Source: Erysipelotrichales bacterium
GTDB lineage: Bacteria; Bacillota_I; Bacilli_A; RF39; UBA660
Direction: 5' to 3'
Length of the DNA stretch: 64,000 nt
Assembly (NCBI GenBank): GCA_022508565.1
Contig: JAFLUY010000004.1
Location: 47,454-111,453, forward strand
Shown piece by piece: positions 1-9,584 of the stretch. The translations under genes and the position numbers were made by a program. Position 1 is the stretch's first letter. The number at the start of each line of letters is the position of its first letter. Below the pieces are notes generated by a model, which did not search any database, had not been told where the DNA came from, and saw only the letters and a program-made list of their open reading frames with translations.

Positions 1-404
1 TCAGTTGGTTTTTTCTTATTGTTTTTAACCGAACTTAACATCGAATCTTGTTTAGGATCTGACATGAAAACATTTTCTTGACATGGCTCGGCCATCATAT
101 TTTCCATGTCATTTTCTTCTGGACAAACTAAAATTTGACCTTCTCCTAATTCAAATGGATTTGATATGCCATTTACTTTACAAATGATATCAGCATATTC
201 ATCAGACCCATATATAGCTAATGATATAAGATCTGGTCGAGCAACATATTCTTTAGGTACTTGTACAATTTCTGCTCCAGTCATCGGAATCCATTTAATG
301 GACCTAGAAAGTAAATCAAGGCATTCTACTGTATTAGTACCATCAAAATTTGATCTTTTCTTTACGATGCGTTTTTTATTTAATGTTGTATATGATAGAC
401 TCAT
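1..404 (-). CDS. partial CDS (3' end beyond window) with a LysM-like segment; candidate baseplate/tail protein
   Basis: Minus-strand ATG at 402-404 opens a frame running off the left edge. Translation: MSLSYTTLNKKRIVKK...VQVPKEYVARPDLISLAIYGSDEYADIICKVNGISNPFELGEGQILVCP. The segment resembles LysM (helix, N-G-[IL]-S-N-P, then G-Q-x-L-x-[IV]-P). It is absent from the ORF track because no stop lies in the window. Confidence 0.45.
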   Translation of the reverse strand, partial: MSLSYTTLNKKRIVKKRSNFDGTNTVECLDLLSRSIKWIPMTGAEIVQVPKEYVARPDLISLAIYGSDEYADIICKVNGISNPFELGEGQILVCPEENDMENMMAEPCQENVFMSDPKQDSMLSSVKNNKKKPT

Positions 405-417
405 ATTATTATATTGT

Positions 418-885
418 TTATATTATAATCAAAAATAAATTTAAAATTGAAAATATTTCTACCCAAAAGACCCATGATTTTTTATAGATTAAAATGCAAC
501 AAAGCATAAGAATTATTGAAATTATGAAATTTACATAATAATGATTCAATATTATCCATAAATTAGAGCATAACGCCGATATCACACCGCCAATATAATG
601 AAGTTTTCTTTGAAATGATTCATCTTTAAATAGCGGAGTAGACCCAGCGGCGAATAGTCCAGCAATACTTAAGAATCCAAGAAATTCAAATTTCCCAAAT
701 GATAACCAAGGATAGAAAAGAAGTAGTCCGGTAATGAAGCAAAAACATGTAAATGGATTTATTTTATAATTCCAATAATATGATGTTTCTGATAGAGAAC
801 CAGGGATTCTCTTCTTATAGCTTATTGCAAATGTACAATAAGAAATCATCAAGATTATTAAGATTATTATTAAAGCTGTTGTCAT
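418..885 (-). CDS. predicted integral membrane protein (about 4 TM helices)
   Basis: 155 aa with four long hydrophobic stretches (IIILIILMISYCTFAI, FCFITGLLLFYPWL, LGFLSIAGLFAAG, IISIILMLCCILIY). Its ATG start is 2 nt from the upstream gene's stop. Confidence 0.5.
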   Translation of the reverse strand: MTTALIIILIILMISYCTFAISYKKRIPGSLSETSYYWNYKINPFTCFCFITGLLLFYPWLSFGKFEFLGFLSIAGLFAAGSTPLFKDESFQRKLHYIGGVISALCSNLWIILNHYYVNFIISIILMLCCILIYKKSWVFWVEIFSILNLFLIII

Positions 886-887
886 AA

Positions 888-1868
888 TTATTTTATGCGA
901 ATGAAAGCTCTGACAGAAACCGATTTTGATTTTATTTGATAAAAAGCATCATCTCGGTTAATTGAAAACCGAATTACTCTTGCATAAGTTGAACTTTCTT
1001 CAGTAGAAGAAAGTAAATTTTCATTTGTTTCTGCTAAAAGTTTAATAATAATATTTTCTTGATCAAGATCTTTTAAATATAATAAAGAACTATTAATTAT
1101 TTTTCTCCTCGGTACAACATATCCTAATTCACCACATCCTGGAAGATACCATTCTCCTTGTTTTGATCCTTCTGGACAAAATCTCCAACAACAACATGCA
1201 GCTGGAGTATATCCGGTTTGATAATTATTTAATATATTGTCATCTATTTTCCAGGTTGTTTGCTGTTTAAATAAATTTATTAAAATATTTGTATTATTTA
1301 TTCCATCAAAATCTGATAATGCATTTAATGAATAACTAGTAGGTTGATAATATTCTTTTGATCTTGATATTCCATCGGCGTCATAAGGAGAATATCCAAA
1401 TTTAGTAACTGATATAGAATTATGAAACCAAGATAAAGGGTCGTTAGATGCGAAATATTCATTATTTAAAATTAAATCATCAGTAGGTAAATAAACCAAA
1501 CGGTCTTCGGTTCTTGGTCCTTTTGTTCGTTCATGATTTGCTAATATAGTATCTACATTATACATACCATAACAAATATTATTATTTTCTATTCCTCCAT
1601 CATTTGGTGTATCGCAACTCATGTTTACTAAACTCATTGCTCCGGCTTCCCCAGTTCCATAAACGTCATGTGAACTCGGTATGACTATAACAGCTAATGG
1701 ATTATATCGAGATATTGGGAATTTTTCAGCTGGATTATTTATATCAATAACTATTTTCTTATCCTCTTCCCTATCATAAAGAACTATATTTCCAACGTCA
1801 TAATTGCTCGTTTTAATAGTTCCTGTCAAACAAGGCCCATTTTCAACCATTAAAGATCTGCGTCTCAT
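888..1868 (-). CDS. hypothetical virion-associated protein with a Cys-cluster motif
   Basis: 326 aa. Contains TPAACCCWRFCPEGSKQGEWYLPGCGEL, loosely reminiscent of the W-R/H-x-P core seen in the FISUMP-like domains elsewhere in this window. The start overlaps the upstream stop by 4 nt (ATGA-type coupling). Confidence 0.55.
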   Translation of the reverse strand: MRRRSLMVENGPCLTGTIKTSNYDVGNIVLYDREEDKKIVIDINNPAEKFPISRYNPLAVIVIPSSHDVYGTGEAGAMSLVNMSCDTPNDGGIENNNICYGMYNVDTILANHERTKGPRTEDRLVYLPTDDLILNNEYFASNDPLSWFHNSISVTKFGYSPYDADGISRSKEYYQPTSYSLNALSDFDGINNTNILINLFKQQTTWKIDDNILNNYQTGYTPAACCCWRFCPEGSKQGEWYLPGCGELGYVVPRRKIINSSLLYLKDLDQENIIIKLLAETNENLLSSTEESSTYARVIRFSINRDDAFYQIKSKSVSVRAFIRIK

Positions 1869-2863
1869 ATTAAATCAAAATTCAATTTTTCTGGGTAGCC
1901 AGTTTTATAATCATAATTATCAACTTCTTCAATCGTTTCTAAAGATTCCACATTTAGCTTATGTTGTTTAGTTATGATAAAGCATTGATCAGCATATAAT
2001 TGAAGAGCAGCTAACATCATTTCGCCTTTTTCTGGTTCAATATTAAGCATGTTGTCACCGACGTAGAAAGATAGCTCTTTGACGCCAAATATCTTTGCAG
2101 ATTCAATAGATTGCTTATAATTCAAACGTTCTTGAACACTAAACCAAGCAGATAACATATTGTTTATCGTAAATGAGTTTACATTCTCACTAACATCATA
2201 TTCATCAATCTTCCAAATCATTTCTCTCTTAGCATCTTCAAGAGTTCTTTCTGGGGCAGTAGGTTCAGGAGTAATTTCCATATTCCAGACTTCAGATAGT
2301 GAAGCATTTGGATTTTTCTTCTTAAACGCCAACTGTTTTTTAGAAAGCTTTACCCATTTATTATCTAAATAATCTTCCCAAGTCGTTCCTAAATTATCAA
2401 ATAAAGATTCATCTAAATCGAAATCAAATTCAATATAATGTATAGGGATACCCCTTTTTATATATGTTGAATATGTTTTCAATTTCATTACCAAAACTTC
2501 TTCTACATCTGCTTTCGGCTTATCTTCATGGAATTTTGCTTGATCTTCAGAAAGAAGTACATATTTTCCATCTAAATAATCATTCCATGTGTCTCCGATT
2601 AAATATTCAGATGGATCTAAAGGAAATTCAGTACTCATATAAATTTCTTCTAAATCTTTCTGAATATAAGTCAGATTTGATCTAAGAGTCATTCTCCAGA
2701 TTTCTTCAATATCAGCTTCTGGATTATCTTCATGGAATTTAATCTGATCTTCAGAAAGCTCTACATATTTTCCATCCAAATAATCATTCCATGTTTCGCC
2801 GACATTTTCTGTCAAGTTTTCATCGAATGATAATATTTCATTATTATATATGTAAGTTATCAT
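1865..2863 (-). CDS. hypothetical protein with three tandem ~60-aa internal repeats
   Basis: Repeats: ETWNDYLDGKYVELSEDQIKFHEDNPEADIEEIWRM, DTWNDYLDGKYVLLSEDQAKFHEDKPKADVEEVLVM and TTWEDYLDNKWVKLSKKQLAFKKKNPNASLSEVWNM. The DNA is also visibly repeated (2300-2840). Confidence 0.6.
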   Translation of the reverse strand: MITYIYNNEILSFDENLTENVGETWNDYLDGKYVELSEDQIKFHEDNPEADIEEIWRMTLRSNLTYIQKDLEEIYMSTEFPLDPSEYLIGDTWNDYLDGKYVLLSEDQAKFHEDKPKADVEEVLVMKLKTYSTYIKRGIPIHYIEFDFDLDESLFDNLGTTWEDYLDNKWVKLSKKQLAFKKKNPNASLSEVWNMEITPEPTAPERTLEDAKREMIWKIDEYDVSENVNSFTINNMLSAWFSVQERLNYKQSIESAKIFGVKELSFYVGDNMLNIEPEKGEMMLAALQLYADQCFIITKQHKLNVESLETIEEVDNYDYKTGYPEKLNFDLI

Positions 2864-2885
2864 AGTTGTTGTTTAAAAGGTATTT

Positions 2886-5800
2886 TTAAGAAGTTTTGAC
2901 AAAATAAATTTTTGCGTCGTTCGAATATAAATCTTTATTTTGGAATGCGAGTATATTCAATTCAGCATATCCAGTTGCCGGAACTGTAAGAGAAGTATTT
3001 CCATCAGTTGCTATAACTTGGTAACGCGCATTAGTGATATATGTAGGAATTGTTATCACTTTATCAGCAGAAGTTGAATTATAAAATATTATATGTAATT
3101 CTTCTCCGGCCGGAAGAGATCTTATACTTAATGTCCAGTTTACTGAAATAACTGCATATACAAGTTGTTTATTTGAGGGCACTACAGCTGTTGACGAAGA
3201 TATAGTAAAAGCGCTATCTGCTATTCCTTTTCTAGCTCCTGGGTCTATAAATTGAGAGAGATTTCCAGATTCATCATTGGCGAAATTAGTTGTATATTCT
3301 TGTGCCGTTATACTAGGATTTAATCGCAAAACCGGATATGTTGACGATACAGTACCGGTACGATTTTGATAAGTAGATGGTTTTGAACCTCCATGAACTC
3401 CTGAATGAATATGTATATTTGCGACATAATAACTTGGCGTAGTTGATTGGGTACTACTATTAAATAATGCAATATTAGATACTCCAGGATCTATTATTAC
3501 ATTTGTTACATAATTTTCAGGCGTTACGGTAACTGCATCATTAGTGTATTCATAATTATATGAAGATTGCTTACCGAATAATATGTTTGATGAATCATTA
3601 ATTATATTGTGTGAACAATAATCTCCACATTTAAAGTTTTCGCTATTGATTATTCGATTGCTTACGCAACTATTTCCTAAATCAATATTTATTACACTAT
3701 CAAAAATATTTCCTGAACAAGTTGAACCAGTAGTCAATCTTCTAATGTTTTTTACAAAATGATTATTCTGATTTACTGATCCTAATGTCAAATTAGTAAT
3801 AAATTGACCAAAAATATTATACATACAATTATTACTGATAACATTGTTTGACATATATATTCCTATGGTATTATATGAAAATCCATTACCAAGAGTATTA
3901 TTCCCGAATGCTTTTCCTATTGCATTACGGGTACAAGTATAGCCAAATGTATTTTGAATGCAATAATTTTCTAAAGAATTATATTTAAATCCATATCCAA
4001 ATATATTATTGTAACAATTAATACCAAATAAATTTCCTTCAGCTCCGTATTCAAACGTAAAATTATAGCAATTGTAATCAAATGTATTTTCGAGATATGA
4101 ACTATTTGTATTACCGCCAATAAAGCAAATATTATTTAAGTAATATTTACCATCTATCATACAAGGTTTTATTATATTATTAAAAGCTCCCGAATTTTTA
4201 TTAGTATAATAACTTACTGTAATATCTCCGTATGATGTTGATGTAATTGTATAGTTGTCAAATGTATAGCAAACACGTGTATATGTATTATCTGTACCAG
4301 TAAAATCCATATATTTATTTACTGTTGAATTTCTCCAACGCCTAAATGTGATATTTTTAAAATCATAAGGAACATCATTTCCAAATTCATCAATCATTCT
4401 ATAAATTATACCTCTACCAACTTGAGTATTCGCCCATGTATATGTTTCGGTATCATTATCTAATTTATACCATATTTTCCATGCTCCTAAGTTACAATTT
4501 TTAAAATAAGTATCTCCTTCATGATGCATTGCACGAGCTTCTTCACTAAGAGTATTTTCATTAAGCGCTTGAACAACTATATCAAATCTATTTTTGAGAG
4601 TTTGTGCTCCAGTATATGATACACCATTAATTGTCCAAGAAATATTATATACTGATGTTCCATAATCCGTTATTCTATATAACATACCTCCGACAAGTTT
4701 TCCTTCGTCGCGTAAGTTCTTGAGTTCTTCCCAAGTTACACTAATCATCTTCGGAAGATTCTTCTGGAGATTTATCATCGGTTTTTCATAGAATTCTCCG
4801 GAAGCTGATGTATCCGATACATAGATATCACCACCTCTTCTTACTTCGAAAGCGTTATGTCTTCCGGCTTCTTCTGGAATACTTGAAATAGTCAAAGTAA
4901 TATATTCTGCAGAATTTCCGAATTCGTCATTGTCTGATATGCAATATAGTGTAACTTTTGCAGAATTGGTACTATTATTTACATTGATTTTAGCAATAAA
5001 TCCCATTCTTGTATCTTCGGAAACTCTTTCTAATTCTGGGAAGTCGTGTTCTAAATCACTTCCATAAGTATATAAGCAATAAATATTAGTATCTTCTAAA
5101 AGTTTAGTCTTAACTTTAGTTATTGCATTGTCTCCAATTGTGATATTATAACCAATGATATTTTCAAAATTAATTGGATTTTCTAAAGTTACTGATGTGA
5201 TATATGCTCTAACATATAAATTCTTACCAGAAACTGGATCATGAAGATAACTACCGGTCGTTGTTAAAGTACAATTTCCGTCGATCAATATTTCAGTATC
5301 TGGAACATCTACATCAGGTAAACCATTACCAATAGTGAATATTGTTGATTCTGGATCAAATTTGTTTTCAATATCTGAATCATATCCATTATCATCGTCA
5401 TATCCATCATCACTGGCTTTCGGGGTTCCGTCTGAATTAAGCGCTTGACGGCTTAAGTTATATATTCCAGAAGCATGTTCAGCTTCATTATAAGTCTTAT
5501 TATATAACCCTTCAGCATGTGATGAATGACCTAAAGCAATATTTTCTGTTCCTTCGGCATGTGAAGATATTCCTTCGGCCTCAGTATTTGTTCCTTCAGC
5601 ATGCGATGCATATCCTCTGGCGGTTGTTGATTCTCCTTCGGCATGTGAAGCATAATCTAAAGCGATAGTTGAAAAACCTTCAGCATGTGAATAATTTGCT
5701 TGAGTATTAGTATATCCACCTTCAGTATGTGAGCCGCGTCCTGAAGCAATTGTGTATTCACCTTCAGCATGACTTGAATTTGGGGTACCTATATGTTCAG

Positions 5801-8800
5801 GATTTTGATTACTTGATTCTAATCCAGATATATTATTCAAACCTTCAACAAATGAATAATTTGAAAGAGCTTTATTATTTGAACCCGTAGCAAATGAATA
5901 TTCTCCATAAGCTTCGACGTTTTCACCAATAGCAATAGATCCTGTTCTTGTTGCCGTTGAAGATTTTCCGTGAGCAAATGAAAAATCTCCAGTAGCTGAG
6001 CTTGTACCACTAGCTATAGAATTGCTTCCGCTTGCTGTTGCTTCTTCTGTATGAATTCCGCCATCTTCTTCGTTTATCCACCCACAATCAAGTCCAGGGA
6101 TAGTCAAATCTAAAGCGTAAGTATTAGTTGTTGCATTTGTTTGTCTTATGTTAGCACTAGCAGGAGTTCCGCTAGATACTGTTCCAATTTCCATTTTTGG
6201 TGAAATTCCAGGATCTCCTTTTGCTCCAGGTTCACCTTTAAGTTTACTAAAATTAAACGTTAAGTTTTTTGCTTGATTTGTTCCGCTTGGAGTTACGGTA
6301 ACTGATGGGGTACCGACTAATGCATCGATATTTGCAGTTATTGTACCGAATCCAGCATCTTTACCATCATTACCATTAGTACCATTTGTTCCATCTTTAC
6401 CAGGTGTTCCGGGATCTCCCTTAGGACCTTTTATGTTTTTAGTGACAGGCGCTGTCGAGGAATTCTTAGTCCAAGTCAATTCTCCCGCATCGGATACCGA
6501 AGGAACCCAAGTATCACCAACTTCACCTTTATCGCCAGTTTCTCCCTTAAGATAATCAAATGTAATAGTTGTCTTATTTCCGGAAGTTTGCGGAGTTACT
6601 GTTACGGTACCGGTCTTATTGATATTTGATCCGGATTTTACTTCGACGGTTGGCGTTACGCCGTCATCACCTTTCGCTCCCTGATCACCTTTCTCACCTT
6701 GATCTCCTTTAGGACCTTTTATATTTTTAGCTACCGGAGTTGTTGATGAATTCTTTGCCCAAGACAATTCACCGTCATCTGATACAGAAGGAACCCAAGT
6801 ATCACCATCTTTACCGTTAGTACCGTCTTTACCTGGAGCTCCTTCGTCACCCTTATCTCCTTTGTCGCCTTTAGGAAGAGTCAAATCTAAAGAATAAGTA
6901 TTTGTTGAGACATTAGATAATCTCACATCAGCCAAAGCGGTTGTTCCACTGGAAACTGTACCGATTTGCATCTTAGCAGAATCGCCAGCCGCTCCGGTAT
7001 CACCTTTGGCGCCGGCTTCACCAGTTTCACCCTTATCACCTTTAGCACCTTTGAGATTTGAAAAATTAAAATTCAAAGTTTTTGCAAGATTCGTTCCTCC
7101 TTCGGTAACAGTTACCGAGGGATTTCCTGATTCGTCTCCTGAGTATTCTGCAGTAACTCTAATCAATTCTGCATTTTCTCCATCATCACCTTTGTCGCCT
7201 TTATTTCCTTGATCTCCTTTAGGACCTTTAAGATTATGGAAATCTAATGTGATAGTCTTTCCATCATTAGGACCAGTGACTGTACCTGTAGCAGATGGAA
7301 CTCCTGTATTGTCATCTACATTAATGATAATGTTTGTTATATCAGCGTTTTGTCCGGGGTCTCCTTTAGGACCTTTGACTTCACCGCCATCTGTAAATGT
7401 ACTTCCATTATACACCCAGATGTGTCCTGTGGTTGTATCTATATAAGCATCACCAACATTTGTACATTCGGCTTGTGAAGATTTAACACTTATACCCGTA
7501 CCATCTTCACCTTTATCTCCTTTTTCTCCTTTTATTCCAGAGAAATTGAAAGTGATATTTTTTGCAGTATTTGCTCCATCGGAATTTACCGTGACCGCTG
7601 GTGTGCCTATTGAATTATCTATAGTTGCTTTAATAGTACCGAATCCAGCATCTTTACCATCGTTACCAGCAGGACCTTGTATACCTTGTTCGCCTTTTAG
7701 ATTATGAAAAGCGATATTGAATTCTCTTTGAGTTGATGTACCAGATCTAGTTATTTCTACAGAAGGTTCTCCAACATTTGCATCTATCGTAGCTCTAATT
7801 TCTGCAATATCTGCTGCAGCGCCATCTGCTCCGTCTTTTCCGGGAGCTCCTTCATCACCTTTATCTCCTTTGTCACCTTTGTCACCTTTATCTCCTTTTA
7901 GGTTTGAAAATTTAAATGATATGGTTTTTGAATCGTTAGGACCAGAAATACTCGATTCTACTCTAGGTTCTCCTTCATCTTCAATCAATTCAGTTGAAAT
8001 CGATACGATATTAGCGTTTTGTCCAGGATCTCCCTTAGGGCCTTGTGGTCCAGATTCTCCTTTAAGATAATCAAAAGTAAATACAGTCTTATTATCTACC
8101 TTTTCTGAAGTTACAGTAGGAGTTCCTACTTTATCTATATTAGATCCAGAATTTGCTTCAATGTTTACTGGAATATCTTCTAAAATATTATTGATTTCAG
8201 TTTTATTATATACATCTTCTTTATTAGCATATACATCTTGTTCACCATATATAGGGAAGAAGAAATTAGCTATTTTTGGATTAGCTGTTCTATATTGTTC
8301 AAGAAGGTTTTCTGGAACATAAATTTTTAGATTTGATTTAGGTTTGCCGTCATACAATATTTTTCTTTCTTGTTCGGCTACTGAACCTGGTACAGTATTA
8401 TCTACCTTTAAAATCCAAGTTTGAATCTTATCATAATTAGTTATTAAGGTCTTACTACTAAATATTACCTCCTCTAATCTTGCAGGTAATGGGAATCTCA
8501 CATCATTAAAGAATGTTGACTTACTTTCAATCTTTCTTGGATATAGATAATATACTCCACTATTTATTTGAGTTAAAGTAGATGGGATTGTTATTTTATT
8601 TATCGTTTTATTTACAGAAAGTGGCCAGTTTGTCATCGTGATCATTCCTTCTGGAATATCAAAAACGTCAAAATTACACCTATGAAATATTTCTGACCCT
8701 ATAAATGACTTTACTTTATTTAAATTTATTGTATGTAAATTTGAACAACCATCAAAAGCGGCTCCTTTAATTGTTTGCACACTATCAGGTAATTCAATAG

Positions 8801-9584
8801 TCGTTAAAGATTTACAATTTTCAAAACCGAATTCATTAATGACATTTACTTTGTTCGGTATAGTTATATTCAATAATGAAGTACAAGTACCAAATAAACA
8901 TTCTTCAATAGACGTCAAATTTTCAGGTAATGTACATGTAGTAAGCGAAACACAATCACATAAAGCATAACCGCCAATAGATTTTACAGACTGTGGGAAA
9001 ATTATACTTGTTAATGATGAATCTGCTTGAAAACATCCTCCACCAATTGTTTCAATACCGTCATATAAGATGATGTCTCTGAGATTCTTACATTTAGTTA
9101 CAGCATCATTACCAATTATTTTGAAAGACCCTGAAATTTCTATAGACTTAAGATTGTCTTTGTTTTGTATAAAATTATCAGGAATATTTTCTGAATTAAG
9201 TTGAATTATGCCAAAACCACGTTCAGGATAATAAACATTAGATTCGATAACAGAATTATTCAACTCTAAAACTTCATTATCGAAAGTCACATATTTTATT
9301 TGACCATCTTCGATACCGTTTTTAAAGTTTTTGTAATTATTAAATTCAGTAGCTAATTCTTCTACATTCTTATCGACTTCATCGATTTTACCTGACAACT
9401 CTGTATCATCATAAGCATTATTTTCAATACTTTTCAACTTTTCAGATATTACTTTTTGTGAAATAGTACCTGTAGTTGAATTGCCTAATTCTTGAAAGAC
9501 TTCTGGAGTAGTTACATTAAATACTCCAATATTTTGTTTTTTACCGTCTTTGTCTAGATATTTTAATTGCTTCATTTTAATCAT
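2886..9584 (-). CDS. giant (2232 aa) chimeric tail-fibre/adhesin-like protein: BspA-type leucine-rich repeats + interrupted collagen-like G-X-Y segments + [ST]HAEG 14-mer repeats + Cys-patterned octapeptide repeats
   Basis: Uninterrupted 6.7-kb ORF. Residues ~110-300 carry repeated 'F..C.sLtsI.lP.sv..Ig..aF..C..L' units (LRR_5/BspA-like). From ~520-1135 there are multiple G-X-Y runs (GPKGDPGQ, KGDKGDKGDKGDEGAPGKDGADG, KGPKGDQGEKGDQGAKGDDG), each preceded by an F/N-x-F-x-x-LKG box. From ~1180-1380 come YSHAEG/SSHAEG 14-residue repeats. At ~1560 lies the module AGRHNAFEVRRGGDIYVSDT, which is shared with the 1164-aa paralogue. At ~1650-1720 lies the module GIIYRMIDEFGNDVPYDFKNI, which is shared with the 598-aa protein. 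At ~1790-1960 come the NCYNNIFG / YCIQNTFG / CMYNIFG octapeptide repeats. Confidence 0.85.
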   Translation of the reverse strand: MIKMKQLKYLDKDGKKQNIGVFNVTTPEVFQELGNSTTGTISQKVISEKLKSIENNAYDDTELSGKIDEVDKNVEELATEFNNYKNFKNGIEDGQIKYVTFDNEVLELNNSVIESNVYYPERGFGIIQLNSENIPDNFIQNKDNLKSIEISGSFKIIGNDAVTKCKNLRDIILYDGIETIGGGCFQADSSLTSIIFPQSVKSIGGYALCDCVSLTTCTLPENLTSIEECLFGTCTSLLNITIPNKVNVINEFGFENCKSLTTIELPDSVQTIKGAAFDGCSNLHTINLNKVKSFIGSEIFHRCNFDVFDIPEGMITMTNWPLSVNKTINKITIPSTLTQINSGVYYLYPRKIESKSTFFNDVRFPLPARLEEVIFSSKTLITNYDKIQTWILKVDNTVPGSVAEQERKILYDGKPKSNLKIYVPENLLEQYRTANPKIANFFFPIYGEQDVYANKEDVYNKTEINNILEDIPVNIEANSGSNIDKVGTPTVTSEKVDNKTVFTFDYLKGESGPQGPKGDPGQNANIVSISTELIEDEGEPRVESSISGPNDSKTISFKFSNLKGDKGDKGDKGDKGDEGAPGKDGADGAAADIAEIRATIDANVGEPSVEITRSGTSTQREFNIAFHNLKGEQGIQGPAGNDGKDAGFGTIKATIDNSIGTPAVTVNSDGANTAKNITFNFSGIKGEKGDKGEDGTGISVKSSQAECTNVGDAYIDTTTGHIWVYNGSTFTDGGEVKGPKGDPGQNADITNIIINVDDNTGVPSATGTVTGPNDGKTITLDFHNLKGPKGDQGNKGDKGDDGENAELIRVTAEYSGDESGNPSVTVTEGGTNLAKTLNFNFSNLKGAKGDKGETGEAGAKGDTGAAGDSAKMQIGTVSSGTTALADVRLSNVSTNTYSLDLTLPKGDKGDKGDEGAPGKDGTNGKDGDTWVPSVSDDGELSWAKNSSTTPVAKNIKGPKGDQGEKGDQGAKGDDGVTPTVEVKSGSNINKTGTVTVTPQTSGNKTTITFDYLKGETGDKGEVGDTWVPSVSDAGELTWTKNSSTAPVTKNIKGPKGDPGTPGKDGTNGTNGNDGKDAGFGTITANIDALVGTPSVTVTPSGTNQAKNLTFNFSKLKGEPGAKGDPGISPKMEIGTVSSGTPASANIRQTNATTNTYALDLTIPGLDCGWINEEDGGIHTEEATASGSNSIASGTSSATGDFSFAHGKSSTATRTGSIAIGENVEAYGEYSFATGSNNKALSNYSFVEGLNNISGLESSNQNPEHIGTPNSSHAEGEYTIASGRGSHTEGGYTNTQANYSHAEGFSTIALDYASHAEGESTTARGYASHAEGTNTEAEGISSHAEGTENIALGHSSHAEGLYNKTYNEAEHASGIYNLSRQALNSDGTPKASDDGYDDDNGYDSDIENKFDPESTIFTIGNGLPDVDVPDTEILIDGNCTLTTTGSYLHDPVSGKNLYVRAYITSVTLENPINFENIIGYNITIGDNAITKVKTKLLEDTNIYCLYTYGSDLEHDFPELERVSEDTRMGFIAKINVNNSTNSAKVTLYCISDNDEFGNSAEYITLTISSIPEEAGRHNAFEVRRGGDIYVSDTSASGEFYEKPMINLQKNLPKMISVTWEELKNLRDEGKLVGGMLYRITDYGTSVYNISWTINGVSYTGAQTLKNRFDIVVQALNENTLSEEARAMHHEGDTYFKNCNLGAWKIWYKLDNDTETYTWANTQVGRGIIYRMIDEFGNDVPYDFKNITFRRWRNSTVNKYMDFTGTDNTYTRVCYTFDNYTITSTSYGDITVSYYTNKNSGAFNNIIKPCMIDGKYYLNNICFIGGNTNSSYLENTFDYNCYNFTFEYGAEGNLFGINCYNNIFGYGFKYNSLENYCIQNTFGYTCTRNAIGKAFGNNTLGNGFSYNTIGIYMSNNVISNNCMYNIFGQFITNLTLGSVNQNNHFVKNIRRLTTGSTCSGNIFDSVINIDLGNSCVSNRIINSENFKCGDYCSHNIINDSSNILFGKQSSYNYEYTNDAVTVTPENYVTNVIIDPGVSNIALFNSSTQSTTPSYYVANIHIHSGVHGGSKPSTYQNRTGTVSSTYPVLRLNPSITAQEYTTNFANDESGNLSQFIDPGARKGIADSAFTISSSTAVVPSNKQLVYAVISVNWTLSIRSLPAGEELHIIFYNSTSADKVITIPTYITNARYQVIATDGNTSLTVPATGYAELNILAFQNKDLYSNDAKIYFVKTS
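6180..8060 (-). repeat. coding tandem repeats: interrupted collagen-like (G-X-Y)n modules inside the 2232-aa gene
   Basis: Repeated GGTCC/GGACC-rich and AAAGGTGACAAAGGTGA-type DNA (e.g. 7860-7900 encodes KGDKGDKGDKGD). At least eight G-X-Y blocks of 4-10 triplets are separated by ~60-100-aa non-collagen spacers. Confidence 0.8.

Follow-up and report, generated by a model that had tools for sequence, protein, structure and literature searches.

Beaded fibres in which short collagen-like stretches alternate with small beta domains have been described in phages. Goulet et al. (2022; PMC9437275) reported collagen-like linkers together with a domain of three antiparallel strands, the "3-beta domain", in Tal of streptococcal phages, and beading of linker and 3-beta domain has been described both for the Tal of BK5-T (10 repeats) and for streptococcal phage Tal (PMC9692632, PMC9437275). 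Collagen-like side tail fibres have been documented experimentally for EPclA/B of an E. coli O157:H7 prophage (Ghosh et al., 2012; PMC3368898), and a long collagen-like shaft is present in gp61 of the Stx phage phi24B (bioRxiv 10.64898/2026.04.10.717836). Here we describe a gene for a 2232-residue protein, the target gene, encoded on a stretch of 64,000 nucleotides (contig JAFLUY010000004.1, positions 47,454 to 111,453; hereafter the window), which joins a collagen shaft of this beaded kind to leucine-rich repeats, a YadA-like array, a hinge and a distal C-terminal module. We think, with moderate confidence, that its product is the subunit of a homotrimeric virion fibre of ~130 nm, most likely the long tail or side fibre of a huge phage of ~377 kb. 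The gene and its parts, in the order of the protein and in window coordinates, are as follows.

2886..9584, minus strand: whole open reading frame (ORF), 2232 aa plus stop, a single uninterrupted frame
9285..9584, minus strand: N-terminal ~100 aa, coiled-coil-like composition at aa ~30–117, no signal peptide
8175..9284, minus strand: BspA-type leucine-rich repeat (LRR) domain (LRR_5), aa ~100–470, 23-aa period
6090..8174, minus strand: interrupted collagen shaft, aa 471–1165, 12 G-X-Y blocks alternating with 13 beta nodes
5445..6089, minus strand: YadA-head-type array of 14-residue repeats, aa ~1166–1380, seven [ST]H[AT]EG copies
4755..5444, minus strand: hinge module, aa ~1381–1610, HASGIYN...TIFTIGNG, an inserted domain of ~130 aa, then GRHNAFEVRRGGDIYV...YEKPMINLQK
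4320..4754, minus strand: conserved globular domain, aa ~1611–1755, motifs YRITDY, FDIVV.A, WKIWY.LDNDT and IYRMIDEFGND.PYDFKNI
3240..4319, minus strand: single-chain beta-solenoid, aa ~1756–2115, ~20 Cys/Asn nonapeptide repeats at aa ~1830–2005
2889..3239, minus strand: distal ~117 aa, beta-rich, poorly modelled (predicted local distance difference test score, pLDDT, <50), not present in the paralogous ORF 20105–21901 and kept in the metagenomic relative P0364

The initial annotation of this DNA had recognised five modules in a single polypeptide, and the frame is indeed intact, with no internal stops. For the collagen part it had counted at least eight G-X-Y blocks. A regular-expression parse identified 12 blocks of 3–9 triplets between aa 509 and 1128, together 216 residues or 72 triplets. 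Blocks of at least four triplets numbered 11, whereas 2000 shuffled versions of the protein contained 0.23 on average and never more than 3, and Pfam Collagen (PF01391) matched eight stretches with 73 bits (cut-off 27.2). The segment has the runs of uninterrupted Gly-X-Y triplets that define the collagen family. The X position is chiefly D, E, A or P and the Y position chiefly K, D or P; charged K-G-D and K-G-E triplets are the usual stabilisers of the hydroxyproline-free collagens of prokaryotes and phages. A conserved box had been proposed to introduce each block. Its K-G end does so in 12 of 12 cases, and the fuller form [FL]-x-[FL]-x-x-[LI]-K-G in only 8 of the 12.

The spacers between the blocks are 27–41 aa long, not 60–100 aa as first estimated, and the blocks recur with a centre-to-centre period of ~48–67 aa. 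The beta nodes comprise three-stranded units of 36–41 aa, two hairpins of 27 aa and one 40-aa unit of a different type. Ten longer spacers follow a ~38-aa consensus, A-x-I-x-x-I-x-A-x-I-D-x-x-V-G-x-P-S-V-T-V-T-x-x-G-x-N-x-x-K-x-L-x-F-x-F-x-N-L-K-G, and the T-V-T/P-S-V-T motifs noticed earlier are found in the spacers as PSVTVTEGG and PSVTVTPSG. An AlphaFold2 (AF2) model of the array, built as a monomer from a 40-sequence alignment, predicts three consecutive antiparallel beta strands for every 36–41-aa spacer (pLDDT 76–88), with pLDDT 94–96 for the divergent 40-aa spacer at aa 698–737, and hairpins for the two 27-aa spacers (WVPSVSD.GEL.W.KNSST.PV.KNIKG). The picture of a segmented rod with knobs is therefore retained in so far as small predicted beta units separate the G-X-Y blocks; the knobs are nodes of 27–41 aa and not globular domains of 60–100 aa. 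A profile of the ten spacer units searched against the PDB returned collagen peptides only, and no solved homolog of the nodes was found by sequence.

Shafts of this type are common. A search with aa 470–1170 retrieved at least 1889 metagenomic proteins at E ≤ 1e-5. The best 120 of these have a median of 9 G-X-Y blocks and a maximum of 19, with spacer lengths concentrated around ~28, ~36 and ~40 aa. Thus the collagen part, which had been called unusual, has the same spacer classes as a large set of proteins and a precedent in the Tal of BK5-T and streptococcal phages. Some of the homologs carry Collar, Peptidase_S74, BppU_N or Mtd_N domains, and the two that were inspected are flanked, in phage contigs, by the tail genes on one side and the lysis cassette on the other. 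A tblastn search of the collagen region against phages gave no match, for which low-complexity masking and the shortness of the spacers are the probable reason. Within the 64-kb window no other gene has G-X-Y blocks. The statement that the modules also occur separately in neighbouring genes is accordingly correct for the LRR domain, the SHAEG array with hinge and the C-terminal module, all of which have paralogs there, and not for the collagen.

The shaft is followed by the YadA-like array, in which the seven [ST]H[AT]EG copies, the [ST]HAEG array of the initial annotation, stand at an exact 14-aa spacing (aa 1271–1359); the 14-residue register extends over aa ~1187–1375. When the segment aa 1164–1438 was scanned alone, Pfam YadA_head (PF05658) matched five stretches with 42.5 bits against a cut-off of 25, and there was a weak PDB match to the BpaC head (7o23). 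Relatives of the array include Flavobacterium phage "tail spike" genes, a Verrucomicrobia phage "tail fiber" gene and a crAss-like phage. Paralogs of array and hinge are found in the window in ORFs 23227–26721, 26755–29553 and 51122–52723. The first of these and a shorter fibre gene that has the distal module are listed here.

23227..26721, minus strand: paralogous fibre gene, 1164 aa, 24 SHAEG-type motifs and hinge module, different C-terminus
20105..21901, minus strand: paralogous fibre gene, 598 aa, C-terminal module of the target behind a different N-terminus

The array and hinge of the target (aa ~1166–1610) are collinear with aa 503–950 of ORF 23227–26721 at 40% identity. The similarity stops at the LQK of YEKPMI.LQK and the divergence beyond is complete. 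In the 1164-aa paralog the hinge is followed by a different C-terminal domain (...FKLKTNNSKQLFIPFAYSYNNGTIF...FWSSE...), encoded at 23227–23870 on the minus strand (aa ~950–1164), which shows that YEKPMI.LQK is the exact boundary at which distal domains are exchanged. The long [ST]H[AST]EG arrays of 14-residue repeats in 23227–26721 (minus strand), 26755–29553 (minus) and 51122–52723 (plus) have 24, 7 and 15 copies, respectively; all three genes match phrog_25468, a family of unknown function.

Beyond the hinge, the C-terminal module begins with the globular domain, in which ~45 alignment columns are at least 90% identical among 117 sequences. AF2 models it as a globular domain at aa ~1613–1753 with pLDDT >90, and the following aa ~1760–2115 as beta-rich with pLDDT ~70–85. 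The Cys-rich repeat of the latter had been taken for an octapeptide. The period is actually 9, with the signal strongest at 18, and the consensus among the 117 homologs is C-x-x-N-x-F-G-x-x. The distal ~117 aa at the C-terminus are putatively the tip. Alone, the C-terminal module has 1560 relatives at E ≤ 1e-3, the best 120 of which are all named "hypothetical protein", and it has no Pfam match and no PDB sequence match. Foldseek against the PDB yielded nothing significant (all E >0.1). Against BFVD two matches were obtained at E ≤ 0.001, neither of which assigns the fold: an unnamed viral protein over 176 columns, and a nudivirus protein annotated as DNA repair related ATPase over 472 columns at 11% identity. 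No template/variable repeat pair of a diversity-generating retroelement was detected in the window for the 3′ end of the target.

At the other end of the protein, Pfam LRR_5 (PF13306) matches from aa ~131 to at least 261 with 149.6 bits (cut-off 27.7; E 5.4e-44), so that repeats of ~23 aa above the family cut-off identify the domain as a BspA-type LRR. Its nearest solved relatives are gut-bacterial LRR_5 proteins (PDB 4fs7; 4e-36) and TpLRR (6mlx; 1.5e-16). The upstream gene 9577–12498 (minus strand, 973 aa) has LRR_5 at its C-terminus, with 25% identity to the LRR region of the target. Domains similar to the LRR of the target are restricted, in phage records, to uncultured faecal and yak phage contigs. 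The N-terminal ~100 aa, for which only weak coiled-coil Pfam matches were obtained, may be the region of virion docking and trimerisation. A hydropathy scan revealed no signal peptide and no transmembrane or other hydrophobic segment anywhere in the target; the maximum 15-aa hydropathy within the first 75 aa is 0.61.

To see how the modules are combined elsewhere, we consider the results of searches with the whole protein and with its parts. A megablast search of the gene against phage records gave no match, and the whole-protein homolog search was dominated by giant bacterial LRR proteins, with at most 16% of the query covered by any match, and thus says nothing on full-length relatives. An exhaustive HMMER search with aa 1033–2232, which includes two collagen units, the YadA-like array and the C-terminal module, retrieved 21,522 representative proteins at E ≤ 1e-3, of which 2876 remained at E ≤ 1e-30. 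In 24 of the 139 best new homologs SHAEG arrays are paired with the C-terminal module, and the C-terminal half of the target is therefore a recurrent architecture. Four of the 139 join G-X-Y blocks to SHAEG arrays, and P0489 is the sole one that has G-X-Y blocks, SHAEG array and C-terminal module together. Collagen joined to other modules was not seen among the top 120 homologs of any single module.

The two outer parts of the target are found together in P0364, a 1224-aa metagenomic protein on a 4.9-kb Logan contig of SRR16767939. Its aa 88–500 region corresponds to the LRR part of the target (aa 83–464) at 37% identity, and the match to aa 1608–2232 at 46% identity reaches the last residue, including the tip. 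Both proteins have the junction motif LPKMI.VTWEELKNLRDE. A linker of ~110 aa stands in P0364 in place of the ~1140-aa block of collagen, YadA-like array and hinge, and its first ~85 aa are unrelated to the N-terminus of the target. Since the matches of P0364 are confined to the LRR part and the C-terminal module, the target can be read as a short fibre plus a shaft of ~1140 aa. Our best reading of these sequences is that a composite shaft cassette has been inserted into a short fibre of LRR domain and C-terminal module, which sits on a different N-terminal adaptor; insertion, rather than deletion from a long form, would be the direction of change. P0364 itself (positions 354–4028 of its contig) starts with the motif KLIHFKTKAAFDKE...SICWIKD...IFTH, which we take to be like the N-termini of many gut-phage fibre proteins. 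The locus is flagged since its translation is not exact against the query.

Collagen helices and YadA-head rolls are obligately trimeric folds, and the target should therefore be a homotrimer. In the fibre that we infer, the N-terminal ~100 aa would dock to the virion and trimerise, and three BspA-type LRR solenoids would be exposed laterally near the virion-proximal end, possibly as an accessory adhesin. Twelve short, charge-stabilised collagen triple helices, clamped by 13 small trimeric beta nodes, would form a beaded shaft. The nodes would nucleate the short helices and hold their register, leaving joints between rigid segments. A beta-roll of the YadA-head type and a neck with an inserted domain would lead to the distal host-binding module, composed of the conserved globular domain, a Cys/Asn-ladder beta-solenoid and the tip domain. 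At the far end, solenoid and tip would be the parts that touch the host surface first. Reach and flexibility would come from the long segmented shaft and would enable the distal module and the LRR arms to find surface receptors. Using textbook rises per residue, the collagen would account for ~62 nm (216 residues × 0.286 nm), the 13 nodes at ~2.5 nm each for ~30–35 nm, ~14 turns of beta-roll for ~7 nm, the neck, globular domain, ~10–15 solenoid turns and tip for ~20 nm, and the N-terminal coil for ~10 nm, which adds up to a fibre on the order of 130 nm.

The genomic setting points to a phage. The target is placed within a run of same-strand genes that extends from ~36.6 kb down to 0.4 kb of the window; its 5′ end overlaps the upstream 973-aa gene by 8 nt, and a 332-aa gene lies 22 nt downstream. 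The window is 100% identical to part of the 377,382-bp ENA contig ERZ27293317 k141_1147735 (positions ~23,402–87,401), is packed with large, mutually paralogous fibre-like genes without Pfam matches, and also encodes a DNA-polymerase exonuclease subunit and a GtrB-like glycosyltransferase. A conserved neighbour of 1136 aa (phrog_29329) has relatives in 30 phage records, all of them Lak phages of Prevotella, Tenacibaculum pT24, Sphingomonas PAU, Chryseobacterium MA9V or uncultured huge phages; the 12 listed are 213–636 kb in size. That the 377,382-bp contig is a huge phage is well supported. At NCBI it is labelled "MAG: Erysipelotrichales bacterium" (e.g., MCH5166942.1, MCH5166944.1), a bin label that is probably wrong in view of the content and of the distant relatives Lak, PAU, pT24, MA9V and LR756500.

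Several features of the surrounding genes were noted. An unusually large cluster of big, paralogous fibre-like genes occupies 888–36574 (minus strand) and 51122–61847 (plus strand), with a 3105-aa gene just outside the window. Paralogy is visible within it at the DNA level (16947–17855 vs. 15510–16427, 70%; 23429–23828 vs. 14340–14775, 71%), and three of its genes have a common N-terminal motif, P.D.R..V.T.DDL...YIYEG.QVYV.DE. An impression that N-termini of neighbours are Mtd_N-like was unsupported by Pfam and was dropped. The 332-aa gene (1865–2863, minus strand), directly downstream of the target, contains a direct repeat (2485–2598 vs. 2689–2802, 82% DNA identity) with the protein motif TWNDYLDGKYV.LSEDQ.KFHE.NP. 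It has a weak match to a PHROG tail protein and by its position could be a fibre assembly factor. At 49383–51001 (plus strand) a 204-aa ORF with Pfam Peptidase_G2, the domain that acts in phage tail spikes as an autoproteolytic intramolecular chaperone, is followed by the GtrB-like family-2 glycosyltransferase, directly upstream of a SHAEG-array gene. At ~36.6 kb both strand and GC skew switch: on the left, genes lie on the minus strand and the skew is negative, and on the right they lie on the plus strand and the skew is positive. The homolog of the exonuclease subunit begins at 36695. The site is either a divergent transcription boundary or a switch related to replication.

The relatives of the modules speak for a tail fibre. 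The target matches PHROG tail-fibre families, and each of its separable modules has relatives that are annotated as phage tail fibres or spikes or that occupy a tail-fibre position, beside baseplate or lysis genes. This bears out the earlier suggestion of a fibre assembled from separable modules. Five observations weigh against the reading as a trimeric, receptor-binding tail fibre. No terminase, capsid, sheath, baseplate or tail hallmark was recognised in the window or the fetched flanks by Pfam, PHROGs or PDB, and attachment to the tail rather than to the head is accordingly presumed. The N-terminal ~85 aa have no detectable relative in the window. The AF2 models are monomers only, in which the G-X-Y blocks appear as unconfident coil (pLDDT <50) and no trimeric packing of the nodes is seen; for the G-X-Y blocks, such coil is the expected outcome in a monomer model. 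The globular domain is much more conserved than usual receptor-binding tips, and it could have an enzymatic or assembly role. Finally, the junction of hinge and C-terminal module at aa ~1610 is known from a single assembly of a single sample.

The first two of these points, namely the missing tail or baseplate genes and an N-terminal docking region without a known relative, would also fit a decoration fibre of the same trimeric modular build that is attached to the capsid, the neck or a whisker and that serves environmental or mucus adherence or primary reversible adsorption. The BspA-type LRR domains, seen only in uncultured faecal phage records, and the number of paralogous fibre genes at the locus, which exceeds the usual needs of one baseplate, speak for the same explanation. 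However, the distal module has its collinear counterpart in a tail fibre encoded next to baseplate genes, and homologs of the collagen array occupy the tail-fibre position, and we regard a decoration fibre as a real but distinctly less probable alternative to the tail or side fibre.

The conservation of the globular domain leads to a second alternative, which would make the distal module an enzyme (for example a surface-glycan depolymerase or an esterase) instead of a pure binding domain, and the fibre a very long tailspike. We consider this unlikely. The module has neither a Pfam nor a PDB sequence match, the Foldseek hits in the PDB all lie above E 0.1 and no catalytic site was identified, and a repeat period of 18 would imply a solenoid thinner than pectate-lyase folds.

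The junction at aa ~1610 raises the question whether the target gene is a chimera of two or more fibre genes, joined during assembly via repeats. The repeat of interest lies within the SHAEG array:

5624..5658, no strand assigned: exact 35-bp repeat common to the target and the paralog at window 24771, end point of the k=31 Logan contig

This repeat, which is shared with ORF 23227–26721, and patches of ~78% identical DNA that are common to target and paralogs could have mediated a misjoin, and the full gene has been seen in one sample only. The 2232-aa gene is also called on the ENA contig k141_1147735. A Logan assembly of run SRR13619847 contains a 9061-bp contig with 100% identity to window 5629–14689, which covers codons 1–1318 of the target, i.e., the N-terminus, the LRR domain and the collagen array into the SHAEG array. 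The junctions of N-terminal part, collagen and SHAEG array are thus reproduced by a second assembler; the Logan and ENA assemblies are possibly from the same reads and are independent at the assembler level only. The Logan contig ends exactly at the 35-bp repeat, which explains the break at k=31. At k=141, as read from the contig name (k141_), the repeat is far shorter than the k-mer and its flanks are only ~78% identical, and a misjoin there is therefore implausible. A swap at the repeat would still leave the LRR domain, collagen, SHAEG array and hinge in one ORF.

Two further observations argue against a chimera. The LRR domain and the C-terminal module with tip co-occur in the natural protein P0364. 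A chimera would thus require two misjoins, both in frame, with the second leading back into the gene family that the first had left. The GC content of third codon positions (GC3) is low throughout, 0.16–0.20, in the four segments compared (N-terminus and LRR, collagen array, SHAEG array and hinge, C-terminal module). Overall GC rises to 40% over 6–8 kb of the window, in the collagen part; a foreign origin of this segment was rejected in view of the uniform GC3, on account of which the bump is ascribed to the Gly-rich amino-acid composition. We conclude that the 2232-residue gene is real and its ORF intact, and that an assembly chimera is very improbable.

Least probable of all is a cell-surface adhesin of an Erysipelotrichales bacterium combining BspA-, collagen- and YadA-like parts: the NCBI record name, the giant bacterial LRR proteins among the best LRR matches and the classical use of YadA heads and BspA in bacterial adhesins are in its favour, but the target lacks a signal peptide and a transmembrane segment as well as any YadA or cell-wall anchor, its neighbours are Pfam-dark paralogous fibre genes, the phage-record relatives of the conserved neighbour are all jumbo phages, and the modules recur in phage contigs beside lysis genes.

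A long tail or side fibre thus being the preferred reading, the target can be set beside the described systems module by module. For its distal module the counterpart is gp53, a 721-aa tail fibre of Clostridium phage phiCT453A, whose C-terminal ~560 aa are collinear with the module at 24% identity overall and 34% in the repeats. Both have a globular domain with TYEELK...LVPG..Y..TDY, followed by Cys/Asn nonapeptides with periods 9 and 18. In the phage genome gp53 follows immediately on the genes for baseplate J and XkdU and precedes the holin, and its N-terminus is annotated in the record as DUF3751. In gp53 the module stands directly behind the N-terminal anchor, without LRR, collagen or YadA-like parts and without an extra tip. 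The 14-residue head repeats above the Pfam cut-off are those of YadA-family heads (PF05658; BpaC head 7o23). Unlike the YadA trimeric autotransporters, the target lacks a signal peptide and a C-terminal YadA anchor barrel and ends in solenoid and tip instead, and the [ST]HAEG consensus of its repeats is of a kind characteristic for phage fibres (phrog_25468). With EPclA/B and phi24B gp61, which are trimeric phage fibres, it has in common a charge-rich, hydroxyproline-free collagen flanked by trimerisation domains and a C-terminal binding domain. These two systems have one long collagen domain with at most a coiled-coil interruption, whereas the target has a dozen short blocks and beta nodes.

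Taken together, the modules are each of a kind known from phage fibres, and for the beaded collagen shaft there is an explicit precedent in the literature. The target is therefore an interesting example and not a new kind of structure, and it reveals no new biological principle. It illustrates neatly how very long adhesion fibres arise in huge phages, by insertion of whole shaft cassettes between a proximal adhesin and a distal module that are both conserved. More speculatively, the short K-G-D/E blocks with 27/36/40-aa nodes may represent a distinct and very widespread shaft system without an experimentally solved structure, whose length phages tune by gain and loss of cassettes; the target would then be a short 1224-aa fibre lengthened by ~1140 aa to cross a thick host envelope, with the three proximal LRR arms as a second, independent specificity, e.g., for mucus or a non-host surface. 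We offer this combination as a tentative idea that we would sooner doubt than accept. The 27/36/40-aa beta nodes (at least 1889 proteins) and the module of globular domain and Cys/Asn solenoid both merit structural work, and knowledge of these modules would allow receptor-binding proteins in gut viromes to be annotated better and would aid the prediction of hosts.

The closest counterpart of the shaft remains the Tal of BK5-T (1904 aa) and of the S. thermophilus phages DT1 and TP-778L, in which short G-X-Y blocks likewise alternate with a three-stranded beta domain over ~10–12 repeats to give a very long segmented fibre with distal binding domains. The modelled alternation of collagen linkers and three-stranded domains that marks Tal-type extensions is found in the target. 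Inspection of ORF18 of Lactococcus phage BK5-T showed 11 G-X-Y blocks of 5–8 triplets, compared with 3–9 triplets per block in the target, alternating with nodes of 57 aa. The BK5-T nodes are of one sequence type, whereas those of the target, of 27, 36 or 40–41 aa, are of at least four. Similarity between the two proteins is marginal and driven by the collagen blocks (BLASTP E ~1e-6, over stretches that include collagen), and no homology of the nodes to the ~57–60-aa 3-beta domain was seen by BLASTP. Neither Pfam nor PHROG found a gp27-like Tal N-terminus in the target. Compared with BK5-T-type Tal, it lacks this N-terminus and the carbohydrate-binding modules, and has LRR, YadA-like and solenoid modules in addition. 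The new points are the observation that two very large module families have neither a Pfam family of their own nor a solved structure, the node classes of 27, 36 and 40 aa, distinct from the described ~57–60-aa 3-beta domain, the link that P0364 reveals between a short and a long form, and the combination of the five modules itself.

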